The notes under the pieces: model-generated | Told to the model about the DNA's origin: nothing | Databases searched by the model: none | What the model saw: the letters and a program-made list of their open reading frames with translations, nothing else | Assembly: GCA_964495855.1 (NCBI GenBank) | Contig: CAZBYY010000003.1 | Coordinates: 1-34,683 of the forward strand | Source: an uncultured Acidobacterium sp. | GTDB lineage: Bacteria; Acidobacteriota; Vicinamibacteria; Vicinamibacterales; UBA2999 | Length of the DNA: 34,683 bases | Direction of reading: 5' to 3' | Translations under genes and position numbers: made by a program | Shown here: piece by piece, positions 3,212 through 16,129 of the stretch | Layout of the letters: the number at the start of each line of letters is the position of its first letter | Position numbering within the stretch: position 1 is the first letter of the stretch

Positions 3212-3748
3212 GTGGCGCTCACCGCAACGATCTTCAACTTCGATGTCGACCTCGCAGACAACGACCGGGGCGTGTATGACACACTGGCCCTCCGCGTCGC
3301 ACAGCACCCGTCGGAGTCCGACGAATACCTGATCGCGCGCGTGATCGCGTACCTGATCGAATACCAGGACGGCATCGCCTTTTCGCGCGGCGTGTCGGAG
3401 CCTGACGAGCCGGCGATCTTCATCCGCGATCTCACCGGCACGATCGTCACCTGGATCGAGATCGGCACGCCCGATGCGGCGCGGCTGCACAAAGCCTCCA
3501 AGACCGGCGCACGCGTCGTCGCCTACTGTCACAAGGAAGGCGCGCAGTGGCTGAAGGGCCTCGCGGCGGCAGGTATTCACCGCGCCGACGCGCTGGAGCT
3601 GTATGCGATCGACCGGACGCTGATCGCCGAGATGGTGGCGCGCCTCGATCGGCGCATGACGTTCAGTGTGTCGATCACCGATCGCGAGCTCTACATTTCC
3701 ATTGGTGATGCAAACCTCACCGGCGCCGTGACGCGCCTCGCGATCTGA
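3212..3748 (+). CDS. yaeQ: YaeQ family protein
   Basis: MALTATI..D.DRGVY..L.LRVAQHPSESDE, DEPAI, WIEIGTPD..RLHKA. Confidence 0.92.
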   Translation: MALTATIFNFDVDLADNDRGVYDTLALRVAQHPSESDEYLIARVIAYLIEYQDGIAFSRGVSEPDEPAIFIRDLTGTIVTWIEIGTPDAARLHKASKTGARVVAYCHKEGAQWLKGLAAAGIHRADALELYAIDRTLIAEMVARLDRRMTFSVSITDRELYISIGDANLTGAVTRLAI

Positions 3749-8091: not shown

Positions 8092-8165
8092 TGGGAGGTC
8101 GTTCAACGGTAGGACAGCGGACTCTGACTCCGCTTATCGGGGTTCGAATCCCTGCCTCCCAGCCA
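8092..8165 (+). tRNA. tRNA-Gln (anticodon CTG)
   Basis: Acceptor TGGGAGG/CCTCCCA, anticodon arm GCGGA-CTCTGAC-TCCGC, TTCGAAT T-loop, encoded CCA end; 74 nt. Confidence 0.97.
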
Positions 8166-8245: not shown

Positions 8246-8773
8246 ATGGCGCGAATCGCATTTATGACGCTCGGCGTGCTCAAGCAACCAATTGGCCATC
8301 CGGAGGTCCAGGGATTCGTGGATCGCCTCGCCGCAAACTACGCCGCGGCGGAAGGAAGCGCCGGCTTCTTCGCGCGCTCGATCCGCAACGTCGAGACCTG
8401 GGAACACTCCTGGGGACCGGTGATTCGGCCCCAATGCACGCCGCAGGATCTACCACTCGAACAGTACGCGATGACGTTGAGTCTCTGGGACAACCTCGAG
8501 GCGGTCGCCGCCTACGCGTATCGCGGAGTGCATGCCGAAGCGCTCTCCAAACGTGCGGACTGGTTCATGCGGGGTTCGTGGCCGTCCTATGTCGCCTGGT
8601 GGGTTCCCGTCGATCATGTGCCGCGATAGAACGAAGGCACCGATCGTCTCGATCACCTCTATCGCCATGGACCGACGATGTATGCGTTCAGCTTTCGCGA
8701 TCCGTTCGACAGCGACGGTGCGAAGACGAAGCTGGATCGAACGCAAATTACGCAACAGGCGCGCCGCCCATAG
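8246..8773 (+). pseudogene. DUF3291-family protein interrupted by one in-frame TAG at 8627-8629
   Basis: TLSLWD.LEAV.AYAY.GVH.EAL, YVAWWVP.DH.P then TAG, then in frame NEGTDRLDHLYRHGPTMYAFSF, which matches the expected family C-terminus. Confidence 0.8.
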
Positions 8774-8783
8774 GCGCCGCCAG

Positions 8784-11700
8784 TTAATACGCCGCCGGCT
8801 CGCCGCGTAACATTTTTGCCGGCACCGTGACGATGACGGTGGTTCCGTGGCCGACCGCCGATTCGATCTCGACCGTGCCATTCAGCAGGAATGCCCGCTC
8901 GTTGATGCCCAGCAACCCGATCGCGCTCGGCGGGTGATCAGCCGTCGTGTCGAAGCCTCGCCCGTCGTCCTCGATCGACAGCACGAGCAGGCCGTCCTTG
9001 AGCGTCAGAAGCACGCCGACCGAGGTGGCATGGGCGTGCTTGTGGACGTTGTTCAGGGCCTCCTGCGCGATGCGAAACAGGTTCCCTTCCAGCTCGGGCG
9101 CGAAGCGGCCAGACGGCATGTTCGCCTCCTGGAACTCCGCGGCGACGCCGTAGTTCTTCGACCATGCCGCCACGTAATCACGTAGCGCGGCCGCTAAACC
9201 CAGGTGGTGCAGCGCCGCCGGGCGCAGTTCCCACGTGAACACATCGAGATGATCGTCGAGCTGCTTGACGGAGCCCTGGATCTCCTCGAGCAGCTGCGCC
9301 GGCGCGGCGGCCGACTCCAGCATGTGATGAAGCGCCTGCAGCTTCAGATGGAGGGCCGTGACTTGCTGGCCCAGGTCGTCGTGCAAGTCGCGCGCGATGC
9401 GGCAGCGCTCTTCTTCCTGAACCGAGAGCAGCCGTGACAGGAGCAGCCGGACGCGATCCTCGATCGTGCGCCGGTCGACCAGCTCACGCCGCAGCGTGTC
9501 GTTGACGTTCGCCAGCTCGCGCGTTCGTTCGGTGACGCGCTTTTCCAGCGAGGTATTGAGCTCGGTGAGGTCCTGCTCCCAGCGTTTTCGTTCGGTCAGG
9601 TCCTGGGCGATCTTGATGAAGCCCGTGCCGGCACCGTCGCCGACCCTCGTCAACACGCTGCTCACGAATCGCGTCACACCGTCCCTGCAGGCATGCCACC
9701 GTTCGTCGAACGCGCGACCGGTCTCGCGCGCGGTGGCGATTTGCTGCTCCGGCAGGCCGGCGGCGCGATCCTCTGCCGTGAAGATGATCGAGCCGGGCTG
9801 ACCGATGGCCTCGTCGCGCGTAAACCCAAACAGCACTTCGGCGCCCGTATTCCAGTCCTCGATGACGCCGTCCGCCGTCAGGATCAGGATGGCGTGTTGC
9901 GTCACCGACTGCAGGACCGACCGCAGGCGCGATTCCGTCAACTGCAGCGCCTTCTCGGAGTTCTTCCGCACCGTCACGTCGACAAACGTCATCACCACGC
10001 CGTCGATGCGATCTTCGGCGGTGCGGTACGGCAGCAACCGCATGCTCCACCACCGGTGATCACGGGTCTGCACCTCACGCTCGATCAGCTGCAGGTGGCT
10101 CAGGACCTGCTCCGCCTCCTCGCTGAGCCGCTCTTCGATCAGTTCGGTGTGGATGTCATTGAGCGGACGGCCTCGGTCGGCCGGGATCAACTTGAACAGC
10201 TCGCGAGACTTCGGCGTGAACAGCTGGACGCGCAGCGAGCGGTCGACGAAGATCGTCGCAATTTCCGTCGAGTCGATCAGGTTGTGGATGTGATCCGAGG
10301 CGCGCGACTGCTCTTCGATCTTGACCCTGAGCTCCTGGTTGACGGTGTTGAGTTCCTCATTGAGCGACTGCAGCTCTTCCCGGCTGGTCTCGAGTTCCTC
10401 AGCCGATGACCGCAGTTCCTCGTTGATCGCCTGCTGCTCCTCGTTGGCGCCTTTCAGCTCTCGCGCTTGCGCTTCGTGTTGTTCGATGGCCAGGCGCAAT
10501 TGCTTCTTCACCGCCGTCAATTCGTTCTCGAGCTGGACGATCGCGTCCGACTCGCTGATCCGAAGCGGTGGCGGGGCGTCGGCCGGTACGCCGCCCGCCG
10601 AGACACGTTCGAACAGCACGAGAAAATGCCCGGCGCCGATCTCGAGTTCCCGCCGGGCGGGGCGAACCAGCAGGTCGACAACCACCGGCTCGCCGTCCAG
10701 CATCAGCGTCAAGCCGCGCGCGTGAACGTCGTGATGCACGAACGCCGCTTGATACAACGCCGCCCGCAGCTCCGCGCGCAACTCAGCGCGAATCGCCGTC
10801 AGCAGGTCCGCGGTGGGCCGGCCCTCGGTGAACTGCAGGAACCGAGCCGCGCCGGCGGTCAGGTGGACGATTTCGTGTTCGGCGTTGACGACCAGCGACG
10901 GCGGCGCGTAGTCCTCCAGCATGCGGTGGTGGATCTGGACCGGCTGGGCGGCCGTCGCCCGATCGGTCGACAACGCCGGTTCCGCCTGGCGCGCCGCCAC
11001 TGACGGTCGCGTCGCGCTCTCCGGCATCGGCATCGGCCGACGCGGCATCCCCGAACGACTCCGGTAGATTCGTGCCGCCTTGTCGACATCCGCGAACGAA
11101 TTCGATGCGGTGTCGATGGACTCCGACGACCCAAGCAGCAGGAAGCCACCGGGGTTCAACGCAAACTGCACGAGGTCGAAGAAGCGCTGCTGCGCGGTGC
11201 GATTGAGGTAGATGAGCAAGTTCCGGCAGCACACGAAATCCAGGCGCGAGAAGGGCGGATCCTTCAAAACGTTGTGCCGTGCAAACAGCACCTTTTCGCG
11301 AAGGTCCTTGCGGACGCGATAGCGCTCACCGTCCTTCGTAAAGAACCGGCGCAGCCGCTCCTCTGACAGGTCGGCGGCGTCGTTCAGCGTGTAGACGCCC
11401 GCGCGCGCGACCGCGACGGCCTGTTCATCAAGATCGGTGGCGAACACCTGGAACGCGACGTGAGGCGACGCCCGTTCGACATGTTCTTGAAGCAGCATCG
11501 CGACCGAGTACGCTTCCTCACCGGTGGCGCATCCCGCGACCCACACCCGCACCGTTTCGTCGCTGCCGCGCTCGCTATGAAAGATGGCGGGAACGACTTC
11601 TCGTTCGACCGCTTGCCACACGTCGGGATCGCGAAAAAAACTTGTGACGCTGATCAGTAAGTCTTTCAGAAGCGCCTCGGTCTCTTCCGGCCGGTCGCGG

Positions 11701-12470
11701 ACGATTGCGGCGTAGGCGGCCAGGGACTCGACCTCGTGCACGCCCATGCGGCGCTCGAGCCGGCGCAGCACGGTGCCCCGCTTGTAATTCGAGAAATCGT
11801 GGCCGGTTCGAACCCGCAGCTGCGCGAAAATCTCGCGCAGCGACGCATCGTCATCACCGCCGGGTGCCGTCGTCTCGGCGGGCAACGGGATCCGGTCGAC
11901 GGTGCTTCGATACGCGATAATCCAGGCCGGCATGTCGCGGACCGGAAGGACGGCATCGACGAGCCCGGTCGCAATCGCATTGGTCGGCATGTCGGCGAAT
12001 TGCGCCTCGGTCGGCGCCTGTACCAGGCAAATGCCGCCGGACTCCTTCAGGCGCTTCAGTCCCATCGAGCCGTCGGCGCCCGTTCCGGACAGCACGACGC
12101 ACGCCGAGCCCGAACCGCGCGCCGATCCCAGAGCGCGGAAGAACATATCCACCGGGGCACGGCGGTCATCGGCGTCGACCATCGGAGACGGATTCAGGAA
12201 CCCATCATCGAGCGAGAGATTCTGGTTGGGCGAAATCACGTACACGTGATTGGGTTCAACGCGCGTTCGTGTCGTGACTTGTGTCACCGGGATGGCAGAG
12301 ACGCGCTGCAGCACTTCGGCAAGATCACTCTCGTGATCCGGCGACAGGTGCAGAATCACCACGTAGGCGGCGCTGCTGTCGGCGGGCACTTCTTTGAAAA
12401 ATGCTTCGCACGCGCGGATGCCTCCCGCGGATGCGCCAATCCCGACGATCAGAAACTCGCCTGTCGGCAC
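8784..12470 (-). CDS. CheB-CheR-coiled coil-PAS-PAS histidine kinase (HisKA_3 type)
   Basis: GIGASAGG/HLSP/SGTGADG (CheB); VTSFFRD, WVAGCATGEEAYS, CRNLLIY (CheR); EELQSLNEEL coil; ARDLHDDLGQ, QEALNNV.KHA, DDGRGF; GTG start at 12470 with GGAGG RBS. Confidence 0.93.
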   Translation of the reverse strand: MPTGEFLIVGIGASAGGIRACEAFFKEVPADSSAAYVVILHLSPDHESDLAEVLQRVSAIPVTQVTTRTRVEPNHVYVISPNQNLSLDDGFLNPSPMVDADDRRAPVDMFFRALGSARGSGSACVVLSGTGADGSMGLKRLKESGGICLVQAPTEAQFADMPTNAIATGLVDAVLPVRDMPAWIIAYRSTVDRIPLPAETTAPGGDDDASLREIFAQLRVRTGHDFSNYKRGTVLRRLERRMGVHEVESLAAYAAIVRDRPEETEALLKDLLISVTSFFRDPDVWQAVEREVVPAIFHSERGSDETVRVWVAGCATGEEAYSVAMLLQEHVERASPHVAFQVFATDLDEQAVAVARAGVYTLNDAADLSEERLRRFFTKDGERYRVRKDLREKVLFARHNVLKDPPFSRLDFVCCRNLLIYLNRTAQQRFFDLVQFALNPGGFLLLGSSESIDTASNSFADVDKAARIYRSRSGMPRRPMPMPESATRPSVAARQAEPALSTDRATAAQPVQIHHRMLEDYAPPSLVVNAEHEIVHLTAGAARFLQFTEGRPTADLLTAIRAELRAELRAALYQAAFVHHDVHARGLTLMLDGEPVVVDLLVRPARRELEIGAGHFLVLFERVSAGGVPADAPPPLRISESDAIVQLENELTAVKKQLRLAIEQHEAQARELKGANEEQQAINEELRSSAEELETSREELQSLNEELNTVNQELRVKIEEQSRASDHIHNLIDSTEIATIFVDRSLRVQLFTPKSRELFKLIPADRGRPLNDIHTELIEERLSEEAEQVLSHLQLIEREVQTRDHRWWSMRLLPYRTAEDRIDGVVMTFVDVTVRKNSEKALQLTESRLRSVLQSVTQHAILILTADGVIEDWNTGAEVLFGFTRDEAIGQPGSIIFTAEDRAAGLPEQQIATARETGRAFDERWHACRDGVTRFVSSVLTRVGDGAGTGFIKIAQDLTERKRWEQDLTELNTSLEKRVTERTRELANVNDTLRRELVDRRTIEDRVRLLLSRLLSVQEEERCRIARDLHDDLGQQVTALHLKLQALHHMLESAAAPAQLLEEIQGSVKQLDDHLDVFTWELRPAALHHLGLAAALRDYVAAWSKNYGVAAEFQEANMPSGRFAPELEGNLFRIAQEALNNVHKHAHATSVGVLLTLKDGLLVLSIEDDGRGFDTTADHPPSAIGLLGINERAFLLNGTVEIESAVGHGTTVIVTVPAKMLRGEPAAY

Positions 12471-12472
12471 GT

Positions 12473-13474
12473 CTATTCCTCCATCGGCACAAGCGCGACG
12501 CGACGCCCGACCATTTCTCGAAGCAGTTCGAACTGATCGGTGACCAGCGCCAGTTGCCGGCCAAGACGGTCGGCGTTGCCGCCGTTCGTTTCCAGGTCGT
12601 GACGCGCCAGCCGCTCGAGCAGCAACCGTCCCTCTTCCGAGGCGCGGACCGCGGACCACAACGCGTTCTCGATCCCCTCGCTCACGGAGACCAGCAGGCT
12701 TTCAACGGAATAGGCGTGGCCGGTGTGACAGCGGAATCGGAGGATGCCGTGTTCCTTGAGCTCGAGAAGCACGCCATGACAATCCGGACAGGCAAAAACG
12801 GACGGCTCGCCAATCTGCTCGACGCGGCGGTTCACGGCAGTATCCTCCTTCGCGATGGCGATCTCGACATGGATCGCGTCGGCCACTTCGGATCGAAGGT
12901 CCTCGACTGGTCTGCGCAGCGCATCGGCCAGCGCCCGGGGCATGTCTGCCAACGGCACGACGTAATCGGCGGCGACGTGCTTCAGCGCATTCGCCGGCAT
13001 CGATGGGAACTGCGCGTCCGCCGGGTCCTGCACAATCGCGATGCCGCCGTGCTGCTTGATCGTCTTCAACCCGGCTGAACCATCGTCGAGATTGCCGGTC
13101 AGGACCACGCCAACGGCGCCGGCGCCAAACACGTGCGCTGCGGAGCGGAACAACGGATCGATCGCCGGACGAAAGCGATTCTCCTTCGGGCCGCGTCCGA
13201 GGCACAGTCCACCGGCTTCAATCAGAAGGTGATGGTCTGGCGGCGCCACGTAAATGTGTCCGCGCTGCACTGCCATCCCGGTCTCGGCCGTGGCCGTTGG
13301 CAACGCGCCCGCGTCAGCGAGAATCCCGGCGAGCAGGCCCGGCGATTGAGGGGACGTGTGGACGACGATGCAGATGGGTGCCGGGAAGTCCGGTGTGAGC
13401 CGGCCGATCAACAGCCGCAACGCTTCGATGCCCCCGGAAGAAGCGCCGATGACCACAATTCGTTGCGCTTCCAT
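12473..13474 (-). CDS. cheB: Stand-alone CheB-type methylesterase, no receiver domain, with C-terminal Cys/His extension
   Basis: GASSGG, VVH, RPAIDPLFRSAA, LTGNLDDG; tail CPDCHG..RFRCHTGH; GGAGG RBS before GTG/ATG at 13477/13474. Confidence 0.9.
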   Translation of the reverse strand: MEAQRIVVIGASSGGIEALRLLIGRLTPDFPAPICIVVHTSPQSPGLLAGILADAGALPTATAETGMAVQRGHIYVAPPDHHLLIEAGGLCLGRGPKENRFRPAIDPLFRSAAHVFGAGAVGVVLTGNLDDGSAGLKTIKQHGGIAIVQDPADAQFPSMPANALKHVAADYVVPLADMPRALADALRRPVEDLRSEVADAIHVEIAIAKEDTAVNRRVEQIGEPSVFACPDCHGVLLELKEHGILRFRCHTGHAYSVESLLVSVSEGIENALWSAVRASEEGRLLLERLARHDLETNGGNADRLGRQLALVTDQFELLREMVGRRVALVPMEE

Positions 13475-13548: not shown

Positions 13549-13564
13549 CGTTCCGTTTGGAACA
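13549..13564. promoter_or_regulatory. Palindrome cGTTCC-N4-GGAACA, candidate Crp-family site
   Basis: Centred about -42.5 relative to the start implied by TATCGT (13587-13592). Confidence 0.5.
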
Positions 13565-13612
13565 GTCAGCATTCGGCACCGACGGTTATCGTCAATGCTC
13601 CAGGACCGACTC

Positions 13613-14704
13613 ATGGTATCCGAATTCATTGCCCTCAACCGCGACGAGATCATCCGTCGCTGTCGAGTCAGAGTCAGCGCGCGGTCGATCCCGCCGCCGA
13701 CGCCCGCCGAAATCAACCACGGGGTGCCCGTCTTCCTGAGTCAGCTGCAGCACGCGCTTGATTTCGGGTTATCGATGTCACAGGAAATTGGCGGCACTGC
13801 CCTTCAGCACGGTCACGACCTGCTGATGCAAGGCTTCACCGTGTCTCAAGTCGTGCACGACTACGGCGACATCTGCCAGGCGATCACTGAACTCGCGGTG
13901 GAGATGGAAGCGCCGATCAGCACCGAGGATTTCCGCACGCTGAATCGTTGCCTCGACGATGCGATTGCCGGCGCCGTCACTGAATACGCGCGCGAGCGAA
14001 CCCAGACCGGCATCGACACCGAGTCCGCAAAAGGCAACGAGCGTTTGGGGTACTTCATCCACGAGATGCGAAACCTGATCAGCAGGGCAAGTTACGCCTT
14101 CGAAATACTCAAGACCGGCGAAGTGGGCCTGACCGGCAGTACCGGCATGGTGCTGCAGCGCAGCCTGGCCGAACAACGCACGCTGATTGCGCGATCGCTC
14201 ACCGAGATCCGCCTGACCCAGGGCGTGCAGAATCCCGAGCCCCTTTCCGTTGGGGAGTTCATCGAGGAAATGGCGGCCGGCGCGCGCCTCGAAGGAACCG
14301 CGCGCAGCATCCGCCTCGAGGTGGCGCGTGTCGAGGACGCCACCATCCACGCCGACCGCCAGGTACTTGGTGCCGTGGTCATGAATCTGCTGCAGAACGC
14401 CTTCAAATTCACCAAGGAGGCCACGACGGTGACGCTGCGCGCAGGCGCAAGCGCCGAGCGCGTCCTGATCGAAATCCAGGATGAATGCGGCGGCTTGCCG
14501 GGCGGAAACACCACCGACATCTTCCGCCCATTCGAACAACGGGGTAGTGACAGGAGCGGCCTTGGACTCGGCCTGGCGTTCAGCCGGTGGGCGGTGGAAG
14601 CGAGCGGCGGCCGGCTCTACGCACGCAATTTGCCCGACCGTGGATGTGTCTTCACCATCGACATGCCGCGCGTGCAGTCACCTGACGCGACGCGCGTCAG
14701 CTAG
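13613..14704 (+). CDS. Soluble sensor histidine kinase with RsbRD-N-like helical N-terminal domain
   Basis: H-box HEMRN, NLLQNAFKFT, DECGG, GLGLGL, GCVFTIDMP; no TM segment; start at 13613 or 13595. Confidence 0.9.
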   Translation: MVSEFIALNRDEIIRRCRVRVSARSIPPPTPAEINHGVPVFLSQLQHALDFGLSMSQEIGGTALQHGHDLLMQGFTVSQVVHDYGDICQAITELAVEMEAPISTEDFRTLNRCLDDAIAGAVTEYARERTQTGIDTESAKGNERLGYFIHEMRNLISRASYAFEILKTGEVGLTGSTGMVLQRSLAEQRTLIARSLTEIRLTQGVQNPEPLSVGEFIEEMAAGARLEGTARSIRLEVARVEDATIHADRQVLGAVVMNLLQNAFKFTKEATTVTLRAGASAERVLIEIQDECGGLPGGNTTDIFRPFEQRGSDRSGLGLGLAFSRWAVEASGGRLYARNLPDRGCVFTIDMPRVQSPDATRVS

Positions 14705-14716
14705 AGGCGCCGCACC

Positions 14717-14956
14717 ATGCCAATACATGCGCTTGCCGCACTCCAGGAGCTGATCCAGGCCCTCGACCGCAGACGGCCGGACATCGCCCGTCACAACGAG
14801 GCCGCCATAGCAGCGGACGCGCACCTGCTCCGTGACCAGGCGCTCGCCCAAATCGAGGAACTGCTCTTGGCCCGGTTGCTGCTCGATTGCCTCGAGCAGG
14901 AACTCGCAGACGCGGTCATGAACGACGATGGCGCGCCAATAGCGCAGTCGAACTGA
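14717..14956 (+). CDS. Small helical hypothetical protein (79 aa)
   Basis: GAGG RBS, 12 bp after the kinase stop; amphipathic helices LQELIQALDRRRP. Confidence 0.65.
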   Translation: MPIHALAALQELIQALDRRRPDIARHNEAAIAADAHLLRDQALAQIEELLLARLLLDCLEQELADAVMNDDGAPIAQSN

Positions 14957-15127
14957 TCAGAGCTGCGCGGTCATCCACAGCAGCAGCCGCACGACCAGCG
15001 CGATCGGAATGCCAATAGCGAGGATGGCCGCGGGGATCGCGAGGAGCATCGCGACCCCTCCGAGCATGTCGCCCGTAAAGAGGATCGCGCGACGAATTCC
15101 AGGCTCGGGATGTGTGGCAGGCGTCAT
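14957..15127 (-). CDS. Small membrane protein (56 aa)
   Basis: MTPATHP..GDMLGGVAMLLAIPAAILAIGIPIALVVRLLLW; TACGAT -10 upstream (15139-15144, minus). Confidence 0.6.
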   Translation of the reverse strand: MTPATHPEPGIRRAILFTGDMLGGVAMLLAIPAAILAIGIPIALVVRLLLWMTAQL

Positions 15128-15166
15128 AAGGCTGGTCGATCGTACCGCCCTTGCACCTGGCAGCGC

Positions 15167-15182
15167 TGTGCCGAACAGGACA
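15167..15182. promoter_or_regulatory. TGT-N10-ACA palindrome (TGTGCC-GAAC-AGGACA), candidate Crp-family site shared by two divergent promoters
   Basis: About -41.5 from CACGAT (+, 15204-15209) and -42.5 from TACGAT (-, 15139-15144). Confidence 0.55.
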
Positions 15183-15214
15183 GACACCGCCGGCTGTAAG
15201 ACGCACGATGGTGC

Positions 15215-15400
15215 ATGGGTACCAATAGCGTCGAGTGTCTGCTCTGCCATACGGCGCACGTGGAATCGTTTGCTGGAAACCCCACGCACTACTGGCAGTG
15301 CGCCCGCTGCGGACAGCGCTGGGATGACCAGCGCGTGGCCACGGTGATGAGCTACAAACGGTGGTTGAAAGCGACCATGACCATCGATAACGCCGCGTAA
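15215..15400 (+). CDS. Zinc-ribbon microprotein (61 aa)
   Basis: CLLCH...WQCARCGQRWD, two CxxC pairs. Confidence 0.7.
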   Translation: MGTNSVECLLCHTAHVESFAGNPTHYWQCARCGQRWDDQRVATVMSYKRWLKATMTIDNAA

Positions 15401-15457
15401 CACCCCGGCCGGCCGTTCGATCACGGGCATCCTGCACCAGCGTGGGATAATGGACGT

Positions 15458-16129
15458 GTGCCGAGCAAGCCGGACGGTCGCGCTTCACCGCTCTCCCGCT
15501 CCGATCTGCAGTCAATGCTCGAGTCGGCGGGCGCCGAATCGACGACTCGAAAGTGCGCCAAGTCCGCCGTAATCTTCTCGCAGGGCGAACCTGCCGCGGA
15601 CGTGTTCTACCTGCAGCAAGGCCGCGTGAAGCTGTCGGTGTTGTCGCGAACCGGCAAAGAAGCGGTGGTCGCGATCCTGTCCAAAGGTGACTTCTTTGGT
15701 GAAGGGTGCCTGGCCGATCAGCCACGCCGCATTGCGACGGCGTCGGCGATGAGCGCGAGCACCATCCTCGTCATCCCGCGGACGCGCATGCTCGAACTCC
15801 TCCATACCCAGCCCGCCTTCGCCGAACGCTTCCTCGCCCACATGCTCAAGAGAAACATCCGCGTCGAAGAAGACCTGATCGACCTGCTGTTCAATTCAAG
15901 CGAGAAGCGTCTCGCCCGCGGCCTGCTGCTGCTGGCGCGCTACGGCAAACAAGATCAGCCGTTGTTGATTCCCGGCATGTCTCAGGAAACGCTGGCCGAA
16001 ATGATCGGCACGACGCGCTCGCGCGTCAACTTCTTCATGAACAAGTTTCGCGATCTCGGATTCATCGAGTACAGCGGCGGTGACATCAAGATCAACCGCT
16101 CCCTCCTCACCGTCGTCCTCCACGATTAG
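15458..16129 (+). CDS. Crp/Fnr family transcriptional regulator
   Basis: cNMP-binding domain IFSQGEPA..GDFFGEG..R.ATA; HTH SQETLAEMIGTTRSRVNFFMNKFR. Confidence 0.95.
   Translation: MPSKPDGRASPLSRSDLQSMLESAGAESTTRKCAKSAVIFSQGEPAADVFYLQQGRVKLSVLSRTGKEAVVAILSKGDFFGEGCLADQPRRIATASAMSASTILVIPRTRMLELLHTQPAFAERFLAHMLKRNIRVEEDLIDLLFNSSEKRLARGLLLLARYGKQDQPLLIPGMSQETLAEMIGTTRSRVNFFMNKFRDLGFIEYSGGDIKINRSLLTVVLHD

Follow-up and report, generated by a model that had tools for sequence, protein, structure and literature searches.

A conserved operator at class II promoter distance, predicted to be read by an RSRVN-type Crp-family regulator of Acidobacteriota

Contig CAZBYY010000003.1 of an uncultured Acidobacterium sp. 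(assembly GCA_964495855.1) encodes a Crp/Fnr-family regulator close to a histidine kinase and several very small proteins, which raises the question of whether this regulator controls its neighbors and, if so, through which DNA sites. The window analyzed here is the whole contig (C3; 34,683 nucleotides [nt]), part of a 4.0-Mb genome that is assembled in 597 contigs and 90% complete. An original prediction, made from the window alone, had proposed a local Crp regulon in which two related palindromes at class II distance from three promoters serve to switch on the kinase and three small proteins as one signaling module. We consider it highly probable that a Crp dimer with an RSRVN-type recognition helix binds a conserved palindrome, cTGTnC-nnWWnn-GnACAg, and acts as a class II activator from sites centered at -41.5 or -42.5. 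Four computational observations carry this reading, namely the motif itself, its fixed spacing to the -10 element, its co-occurrence with a clade of Crp proteins, and a shift at its third base that accompanies a change in the recognition helix.

Both palindromes and all three -10 hexamers of the original prediction are present, and its distances were reproduced. Operator 1, CGTTCCGTTTGGAACA, occupies positions 13549-13564 and lies 22 nt from TATCGT (13587-13592, plus strand) in the kinase promoter. Operator 2, TGTGCCGAACAGGACA, occupies 15167-15182 and lies between two divergent promoters, 21 nt from CACGAT (15204-15209, plus strand) ahead of a zinc-ribbon-like protein gene and 22 nt from TACGAT (15144-15139, minus strand) ahead of a membrane microprotein gene. 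If transcription starts 7 nt past each hexamer, an assumption that places the starts from the -10 elements only (near 13599 for the kinase and near 15132 for the membrane microprotein), the sites are centered at -42.5, -41.5 and -42.5, respectively.

The motif was derived from 108 training loci, comprising the DNA around Crp homologues from 41 related genomes and a GTDB-wide scan, with the window excluded. Genes were called using a purpose-made hexamer-based caller and the intergenic boundaries are therefore approximate. When all 3-base palindromic dyads with spacers of 0-18 were counted in 181 kb of predicted intergenic DNA, TGT-N10-ACA ranked first (247 observed vs. 27.7 expected), and palindromic expectation maximization (EM) seeded on this dyad yielded cTGTnC-nnWWnn-GnACAg (18 bits). 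Sites of at least 10 bits number 252 and occur in 95 of the 108 loci, at a density of 1.51 per kb in intergenic DNA vs. 0.034 in coding DNA. Both window palindromes fit this matrix; in the 34.7 kb of the window, operator 2 ranks first (20.1 bits, also the best site in the genome) and operator 1 ranks third (13.5 bits). The second-ranked match (14.0 bits, 9226-9241) is inside the CheBR coding sequence, has no -10 at 21-22 nt and is probably due to chance. Dinucleotide shuffles of the two intergenic stretches attained the observed score in 0/3000 and 1/3000 cases. The spelling of the sites in the original prediction suggests an inner CC/GG, but the inner pair that is conserved is C5/G12; position 5 is C in 418 of 454 half-sites. 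In the window genome's own intergenic DNA, TGT-N10-ACA is outside the top 15 dyads. Other dyads enriched there include CTAG-N3-CTAG and CTAG-N10-CTAG (a 7-bp period), GGCC-N4/N12-GGCC, TGCA-N4/N12-TGCA and TTAC-N7-GTAA, which may be unexplained repeats or other operators.

Because the matrix spans only three flanking bases, the position of the -10 element provides a test that is independent of it. Among 130 single-direction promoters, TAnnnT stands at a gap of 21 nt in 54 and at 22 nt in 25, with each of the other gaps from 0 to 59 occurring five times or fewer; in the antisense control, TAnnnT occurs at gap 21-22 in 10/130, vs. 79/130 in the sense direction. The class II layout, with a 16-bp palindrome whose predicted center is at approximately -41.5, is found both in the window and in relatives; for NtcA and related regulators, class II activation is defined by a center near -41.5 (PMC11850224). 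A -10 element is present on both sides of 17 of the 122 evaluable divergent sites and on one side of 88, so that the bidirectional layout of operator 2 has precedent. An ATG lies 32-36 nt past the site in many targets, which fits leaderless mRNAs, and the commonest -10-to-ATG distance in the window genome is 6 nt (51 of 904 genes examined). The mRNA of the zinc-ribbon-like gene, in which CACGAT stands 5 nt ahead of the ATG, is likely leaderless as well, and its CACGAT-to-ATG layout is shared by loci L002 and L101.

A strict pattern, TGTNCNNWWNNGNACA-N21/22-TANNNT, is present in 21 of 23 Crp-positive related genomes vs. 2 of 18 Crp-negative ones. The latter two are 86% and 74% complete, and among Crp-negative genomes of at least 90% completeness the pattern occurs in 0/12. 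Across the 41 genomes there are 132 matches, vs. 3 for a reversed control. Conservation had been set beforehand as the test on which the proposal could fail, and it holds for the sites, for their distance of 21-22 nt to the -10 element and for their association with TTRSRV-type Crp proteins. The regulon is genome-wide, however, and not local as first thought: 75 of the 121 strict sites in Crp-positive genomes are far from crp, with 71 on another contig (a count inflated by fragmented assemblies) and 4 more than 30 kb away, and in two assemblies of few contigs (G011, 6 contigs; G030, 10 contigs) sites are located more than 100 kb from crp. Outside the phylum, matches exceed the control in a Ca. 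Binatus genome (19 vs. 1) and a Nitrospiraceae genome (10 vs. 1), while a Verrucomicrobiia genome and a Methylomirabilis genome have one match each. A separate EM on 23 Nitrospiraceae loci, seeded on TG-N12-CA only, arrived at the same motif, less strict at base 3, with 42 sites in 19 loci, and the -10 element of these sites is at gap 21 in 12 cases and gap 22 in 8, with other gaps occurring at most four times.

The regulator gene, crp, occupies 15458-16129 (plus strand) and encodes 223 amino acids (aa) from GTG 15458 or 204 aa from ATG 15515. Its product matches PF00027 (cNMP_binding; E 1.4e-20) and PF13545 (HTH_Crp_2; E 1.6e-11), both above cut-off, which places it in the CRP-FNR superfamily, and its structural model (predicted local distance difference test [pLDDT] 87.8) matches GlxR, Rv3676 and CAP structures. 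The closest named homologue is from a Vicinamibacterales bin, and the family has at least 7989 members, 7989 of 8000 scored candidates having reached E 1e-40. Homologues are also encoded by the cultured bacteria Granulicella tundricola and Bradyrhizobium japonicum. No NCBIfam family scored above cut-off for the window Crp family, and no solved relative exceeds ~29% identity. The window genome's only other Crp-family gene above the Pfam cut-off has a TTIETAIR helix, which we take to be DNR-like. The recognition helix of the window Crp reads GTTRSRVNFF (RSRVN type). In 35 aligned sequences, Q157, R168 and R170 are invariant (numbering from ATG 15515), as is N172 within the RSRVN group, and these residues have the same spacing as Q184, R195, K197 and N199 of Clr from Sinorhizobium meliloti. 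The crystal structure of Clr with DNA shows Q184, R195 and N199 in contact with the TGT triplet and K197 in contact with the inner one (PMC10127613). The window Crp has the corresponding residues (the Gln, Arg and Asn that contact TGT in Clr, plus a basic residue at helix position 3); Q157, R168 and N172 are predicted to recognize TGT, and R170 to recognize the inner C:G pair, like their Clr equivalents.

Covariation between the helix and the operator was assessed with a matrix that is neutral at base 3, using only sites with a -10 element. Among the half-sites of first-set RSRVN loci, 363 of 372 have T as the third base, vs. 54 of 166 at RSRVS loci (20/46 in alphaproteobacteria, 6/50 in Nitrospiraceae, 6/10 in the first set and 22/60 in further Acidobacteriota). 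In a quick tree of 152 of 196 rows, from which 44 RSRVN rows of the first set had been dropped at random, a single branch of 80 rows (support 93) contains 72 of the 74 S-type rows and brings together sequences from Acidobacteriaceae, Nitrospiraceae and Alphaproteobacteria. The identity of base 3 tracks the phylogeny of Crp, not the phylum of the host. Loci L031 and L032 encode, next to the RSRVN protein, a divergent Crp paralogue whose helix is of the RSKVD type and which may have another specificity.

Several observations weigh against this reading or narrow it. Operator 1 begins with C and is an incomplete TGT-N10-ACA, so that the spelling claimed for both sites stands for operator 2 only. 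The genomes are kin, and some of those compared for co-occurrence also contributed training loci. Two genomes with the Crp (G019 and G026) have no strict match, and the association is weaker in a phylum-wide draw, where 8 of 15 Crp-positive genomes and 12 of 136 Crp-negative ones have the strict pattern. Six of the seven Crp-positive cases that were missed in this draw have an RSRVS helix or were partial, and relaxed-motif sites with A or G at base 3 lie near most of them; however, the relaxed pattern is too noisy in the phylum set and separates Crp-positive from Crp-negative genomes poorly. The crp copies retrieved from G139 and G166 have no relaxed-motif site nearby, G156 (RSRVN) has one site without a -10 element, and L189 (RSRIN) has a non-TGT site. 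On 32 alphaproteobacterial loci, unbiased dyad counting and EM found no motif, and sites emerged with a supplied matrix only, their spacing peak being weaker (gaps 21 and 22 in 17 and 8 cases; other gaps mean 2.9, maximum 12). Since 72 of the 74 S-type rows share one branch, the covariation of helix and base amounts to roughly a single event on the Crp tree. Finally, 5 of 21 orthologues of the kinase have no site.

How does this regulator compare with characterized Crp-family systems? Its predicted mode of action at class II promoters is that of CAP or NtcA, and its predicted DNA read-out is closest to that of Clr, but by helix, site or family score it belongs to none of the CAP, Clr and NtcA families. 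With E. coli CRP/CAP it shares the two-domain fold, a 16-bp palindrome with TGT...ACA ends and a center near -41.5. It differs in its helix (RSRVNF vs. RETVGR), in overall sequence (~24-26% identity) and in the replacement of the RS and TS cyclic AMP (cAMP) signatures. Of 227 distinct family sites, one fits the CAP consensus, TGTGA-N6-TCACA, and the regulator is outside the main CRP cluster, which combines that consensus with an RE(T/M)VGR helix (NF008732 59.6 bits vs. a cut-off of 266). Clr (PDB 7PZA; PMC10127613, PMC10187061) is the nearest in DNA read-out, with TGT ends and a relaxed fourth base, and window operator 1 fits its consensus. However, Clr needs C6/G11 (HGTYHC-N4-GRWACA), whereas the window family keeps C5/G12 and a central WW; the Clr consensus was rejected as the family motif, as 1/227 sites match. 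Clr also has an RPKVNR helix, keeps Thr-Thr for binding of cyclic nucleoside monophosphates (cNMPs) and is 29% identical. Cyanobacterial NtcA is likewise a Crp-family class II activator near -41.5, with a non-nucleotide ligand (PMC11850224), but the window Crp scores 45.7 bits on TIGR03697 against a cut-off of 244.95, and the two differ in inner bases, in helix, in the nitrogen regulon of NtcA and in the phosphate-cassette Glu, which is kept in the window Crp. MrpC of Myxococcus xanthus (PMC4320627) is a further Crp-family protein, and its consensus TGTYN8RAC, which is looser, matches 62/227 sites; it lacks C5/G12 and the central WW, its regulon is developmental, and the excerpts of PMC4320627 give no fixed class II spacing. 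A literature search, which for the most part did not cover subscription journals or RegPrecise, found no description of the motif or of the clade, and in the excerpts drawn on, the main text of a superfamily survey (PMC3590769) makes no mention of Acidobacteria or Bradyrhizobium.

Of the alternatives, the one that survives best accepts the same sites and the same regulator but takes the Crp to be a conventional cyclic-nucleotide receptor with a cAMP or cyclic GMP (cGMP) regulon like that of Clr; we regard this as rather unlikely. In its favor, the Gly-Glu pair and Arg of the phosphate cassette are retained (G62 and E63 invariant and R72 in at least 90% of 35 aligned sequences), as is the C-helix Arg (R113, invariant), the nearest solved structures are cAMP receptors, the window genome has two class III cyclase domain matches, and the C-helix signature varies up to Ala-Asp in a cAMP binder (PMC10187061). 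On the other hand, E(X)nRS or E(X)nRT is called invariant in all cNMP-binding CRPs studied (PMC10187061), and the window Crp has E...R-I instead; in 118 hits, the residue following the pocket Arg is M, I, L or V in 107, Thr in 1 and Ser in 0. The C-helix pair aligns to Val-Glu in the window, vs. Thr-Asn in GlxR, and is none of TS, TT, TN, LN or AD; among the 118 hits it is mostly Ile-Glu (83) or Val-Glu (15), with the Arg kept. As the RS/RT and TS-type signatures are replaced, control by cAMP or cGMP is doubtful. The pocket residues suggest that the regulator is on balance not switched by cAMP in the manner of CAP, and a different small ligand or the abundance of the protein would be the more likely switch. 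The conserved C-helix Glu presumably aligns with E133 of NtcA. In NtcA, the C-helix Glu is used for 2-oxoglutarate (PMC11850224), and MrpC is controlled by synthesis and phosphorylation rather than by cAMP (PMC10187061).

A far less probable alternative accepts the motif as genuine but assigns it to a different regulator that is carried along with the gene islands, Crp being merely one of its targets. It is true that crp genes often have a site (57 of 130 evaluable, 21 of them at class II distance), that genome G006 has 10 strict sites and no crp match, and that 12 Crp-negative genomes of the phylum-wide draw have one or two matches, of which G150 and G176 look good. Yet G006 is only 86% complete and in 1220 contigs, the Crp-negative genomes of the draw together have 16 matches vs. 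26 for the reversed control and are thus at control level, every other regulator family is confined to 15 of 99 loci or fewer, and base 3 tracks the Crp helix and tree rather than the host phylum. A TGT-N10-ACA core at -41.5 is also the layout of the Crp family itself (PMC10187061, PMC11850224). The G176 operator (contig C31, 2786-2801; L228) and the G150 operator (contig C15) both look good and have a class II -10 element; the Crp query was unmatched at E 1e-40 in these two genomes, which may contain a diverged member of the family. CRP-family proteins can also repress, and a site at -41.5 overlaps the -35 region, so the Crp could instead block the -35 of otherwise active promoters. This is more improbable still, for a repressor would not require a set distance, whereas the observed one is restricted to 21-22 nt, and no conserved -35 hexamer is apparent in the flank profile from the site to the -10 element. 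A consensus scan for sigma70 found no promoter at the three places in the window, a result that would follow from an activator taking the place of the -35 element; in the preferred reading the Crp dimer would stand in for that element and recruit the housekeeping sigma70 polymerase. That the palindromes are chance occurrences or elements of another kind, such as parS sites, a LexA box or an alternative-sigma -35 sequence, has hardly any probability left, even though TGT-N10-ACA occurs 314 times genome-wide (both strands counted) and operator 1 resembles TGTTCCACGTGGAACA on contig C1, which we take to be parS-like, given the shuffle tests, the conservation, the fixed -10 spacing, the absence of the parS-like central ACGT and the 17/122 divergent sites at which one palindrome serves both directions, unlike a sigma -35. 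The parS site and the Verrucomicrobia LexA box were rejected by central bases and spacing. Contig C1 has two copies (1477-1492 and 3378-3393) of a (C/T)GTTCCACGTGGAAC(A) palindrome, presumably parS-like, which resembles operator 1 but is a different element.

Within the window, operator 1 would drive the histidine kinase gene (363 aa; 13613-14704, plus strand) and a gene for a 79-aa protein without Pfam or NCBIfam match (14717-14956, plus strand) that begins 12 nt past the kinase stop; the two genes are likely co-transcribed. Operator 2 would drive both divergent microprotein genes, one encoding a hydrophobic, likely membrane-located 56-aa protein (14957-15127, minus strand) and the other a zinc-ribbon-like 61-aa CxxC...CxxC protein (15215-15400, plus strand), neither with a family match. 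By read-through it would also drive crp, which begins 57 nt after the zinc-ribbon-like gene. An extended -10-like sequence, TG-n-GATAAT (15443-15451, plus strand), stands 6 nt ahead of the crp GTG without an operator at class II distance and is a candidate basal leaderless crp promoter, over which the regulator may exert positive feedback. A site is present within 300 bp upstream of 16 of 21 kinase orthologues, 11 with a class II -10 element; the 16 comprise 10/10 orthologues that overlap the training loci and 6/11 outside them, against a background of 25 of 3407 genes of the window genome. The operator is also upstream of 3 of 4 zinc-ribbon homologues, 3 of 5 membrane microprotein homologues and 1 of 4 evaluable homologues of the 79-aa protein, the N-terminal half of which recurs in 5 related loci.

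The kinase is intact in its H, N and G boxes, as are 19/19 full-length orthologues (a twentieth hit is truncated), and the orthologues start at the counterpart of ATG 13613 rather than ATG 13595. No receiver domain was found on the window contig, and the genome has 59 receiver matches. The N-terminal domain is helical (model pLDDT 72.6). PF14361 (RsbRD_N) has weak matches in 12 of 20 orthologues, with E values of at most 1 and a best value of 1.8e-4, and none in the window protein, and a Foldseek search with the kinase N-terminus returned globin-fold chains (3pmd, TM-score [template modeling score] 0.60; 3zta, 0.61), none reaching E 0.001. As a lead only, the modeled domain may be globin-like, of an RsbRD_N-like kind.

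On the other side of operator 1, 8784-13474 (minus strand) contains a stand-alone CheB methylesterase gene, cheB (12473-13474), together with a gene for a CheB-CheR-PAS-HisKA_3 fusion kinase, in divergent orientation to the kinase promoter; operator 1 was rejected as a class II site for cheB, there being no -10 element at gap 21-22 on that side (score -5.3). A transfer RNA gene, tRNA-Gln(CTG) (8092-8165, plus strand), lies just ahead of the CheBR/cheB/kinase/crp cluster and is preceded by a TTGAAT...TATAAT promoter-like sequence. An Rfam search found the tRNA alone, and a composition check found no GC step that delimits the cluster or marks an island. At 8264-8770 (plus strand), an in-frame TAG (8627-8629) interrupts a DUF3291 gene, with profile positions 5-112 before the stop and 116-138 after it; this is likely a pseudogene or an assembly error.

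In the window genome, six genes have a site with a -10 element within 300 bp, namely the three window targets, two genes on contig C317 and one on C188. On C317, an 18.2-bit operator with TACGAT at 22 nt is located ahead of two small membrane-type genes without Pfam match (69 and 50 aa; L229 387-795), and similar proteins recur as targets in relatives; the C188 target, a 727-aa gene, is less certain. In relatives, 217 predicted targets fall in 81 clusters, among them crp (21), a mixed cluster centered on the window kinase (13), the lmo0937 family (12), the Thivi_2564 family (11) and the C317-type membrane protein (10), along with cold-shock (6), Ysc84/SYLF (6), DksA/TraR (3) and YtxH (3) proteins; CsbD, BON/OsmY, KaiC and glucan phosphorylase are single predicted targets. 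For annotation, 40 and 55 proteins were scanned, mostly cluster representatives, and the list is biased to islands because it was sampled near crp genes. CsbD was not found in the window genome, and plasmid-borne Crp homologues adjoin CsbD, Ku and an RsbRD-N kinase in annotated records. CsbD, YtxH, the lmo0937 family, BON/OsmY, cold-shock proteins and DksA/TraR are typical of general stress regulons. Thus, the predicted targets in relatives appear to be a broad and largely general-stress-type set that includes crp itself, with the same box ahead of such genes across the genome. The original proposal is retained insofar as the sites are at the predicted promoters of the kinase and the three small proteins, but a single four-gene signaling module does not fit this broad set. 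Such target families recall the SigB, RpoS and EcfG stress regulons; unlike those, control here would be exerted by an activator palindrome on a TAnnnT promoter and not by an alternative sigma promoter.

A broader role is conceivable, although we consider it less likely than not. The Crp clade could be the master switch of a general-stress or dormancy program in Acidobacteriota, Nitrospirota, Binatota and some Alphaproteobacteria, in which a class II activator on the housekeeping polymerase takes the role of SigB, RpoS or EcfG, responds to a signal other than cAMP and is in positive feedback with an induced soluble globin-fold kinase. The altered pocket may indicate an unknown ligand. The pairing of the Asn/Ser helix change with the base-3 change is a natural test of the Crp recognition code, and the motif groups many unannotated microproteins by common control. 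With a defined operator and a fixed promoter geometry, the regulon would be readable from any genome, giving a direct test of how stress genes are switched in abundant, mostly uncultured soil bacteria.

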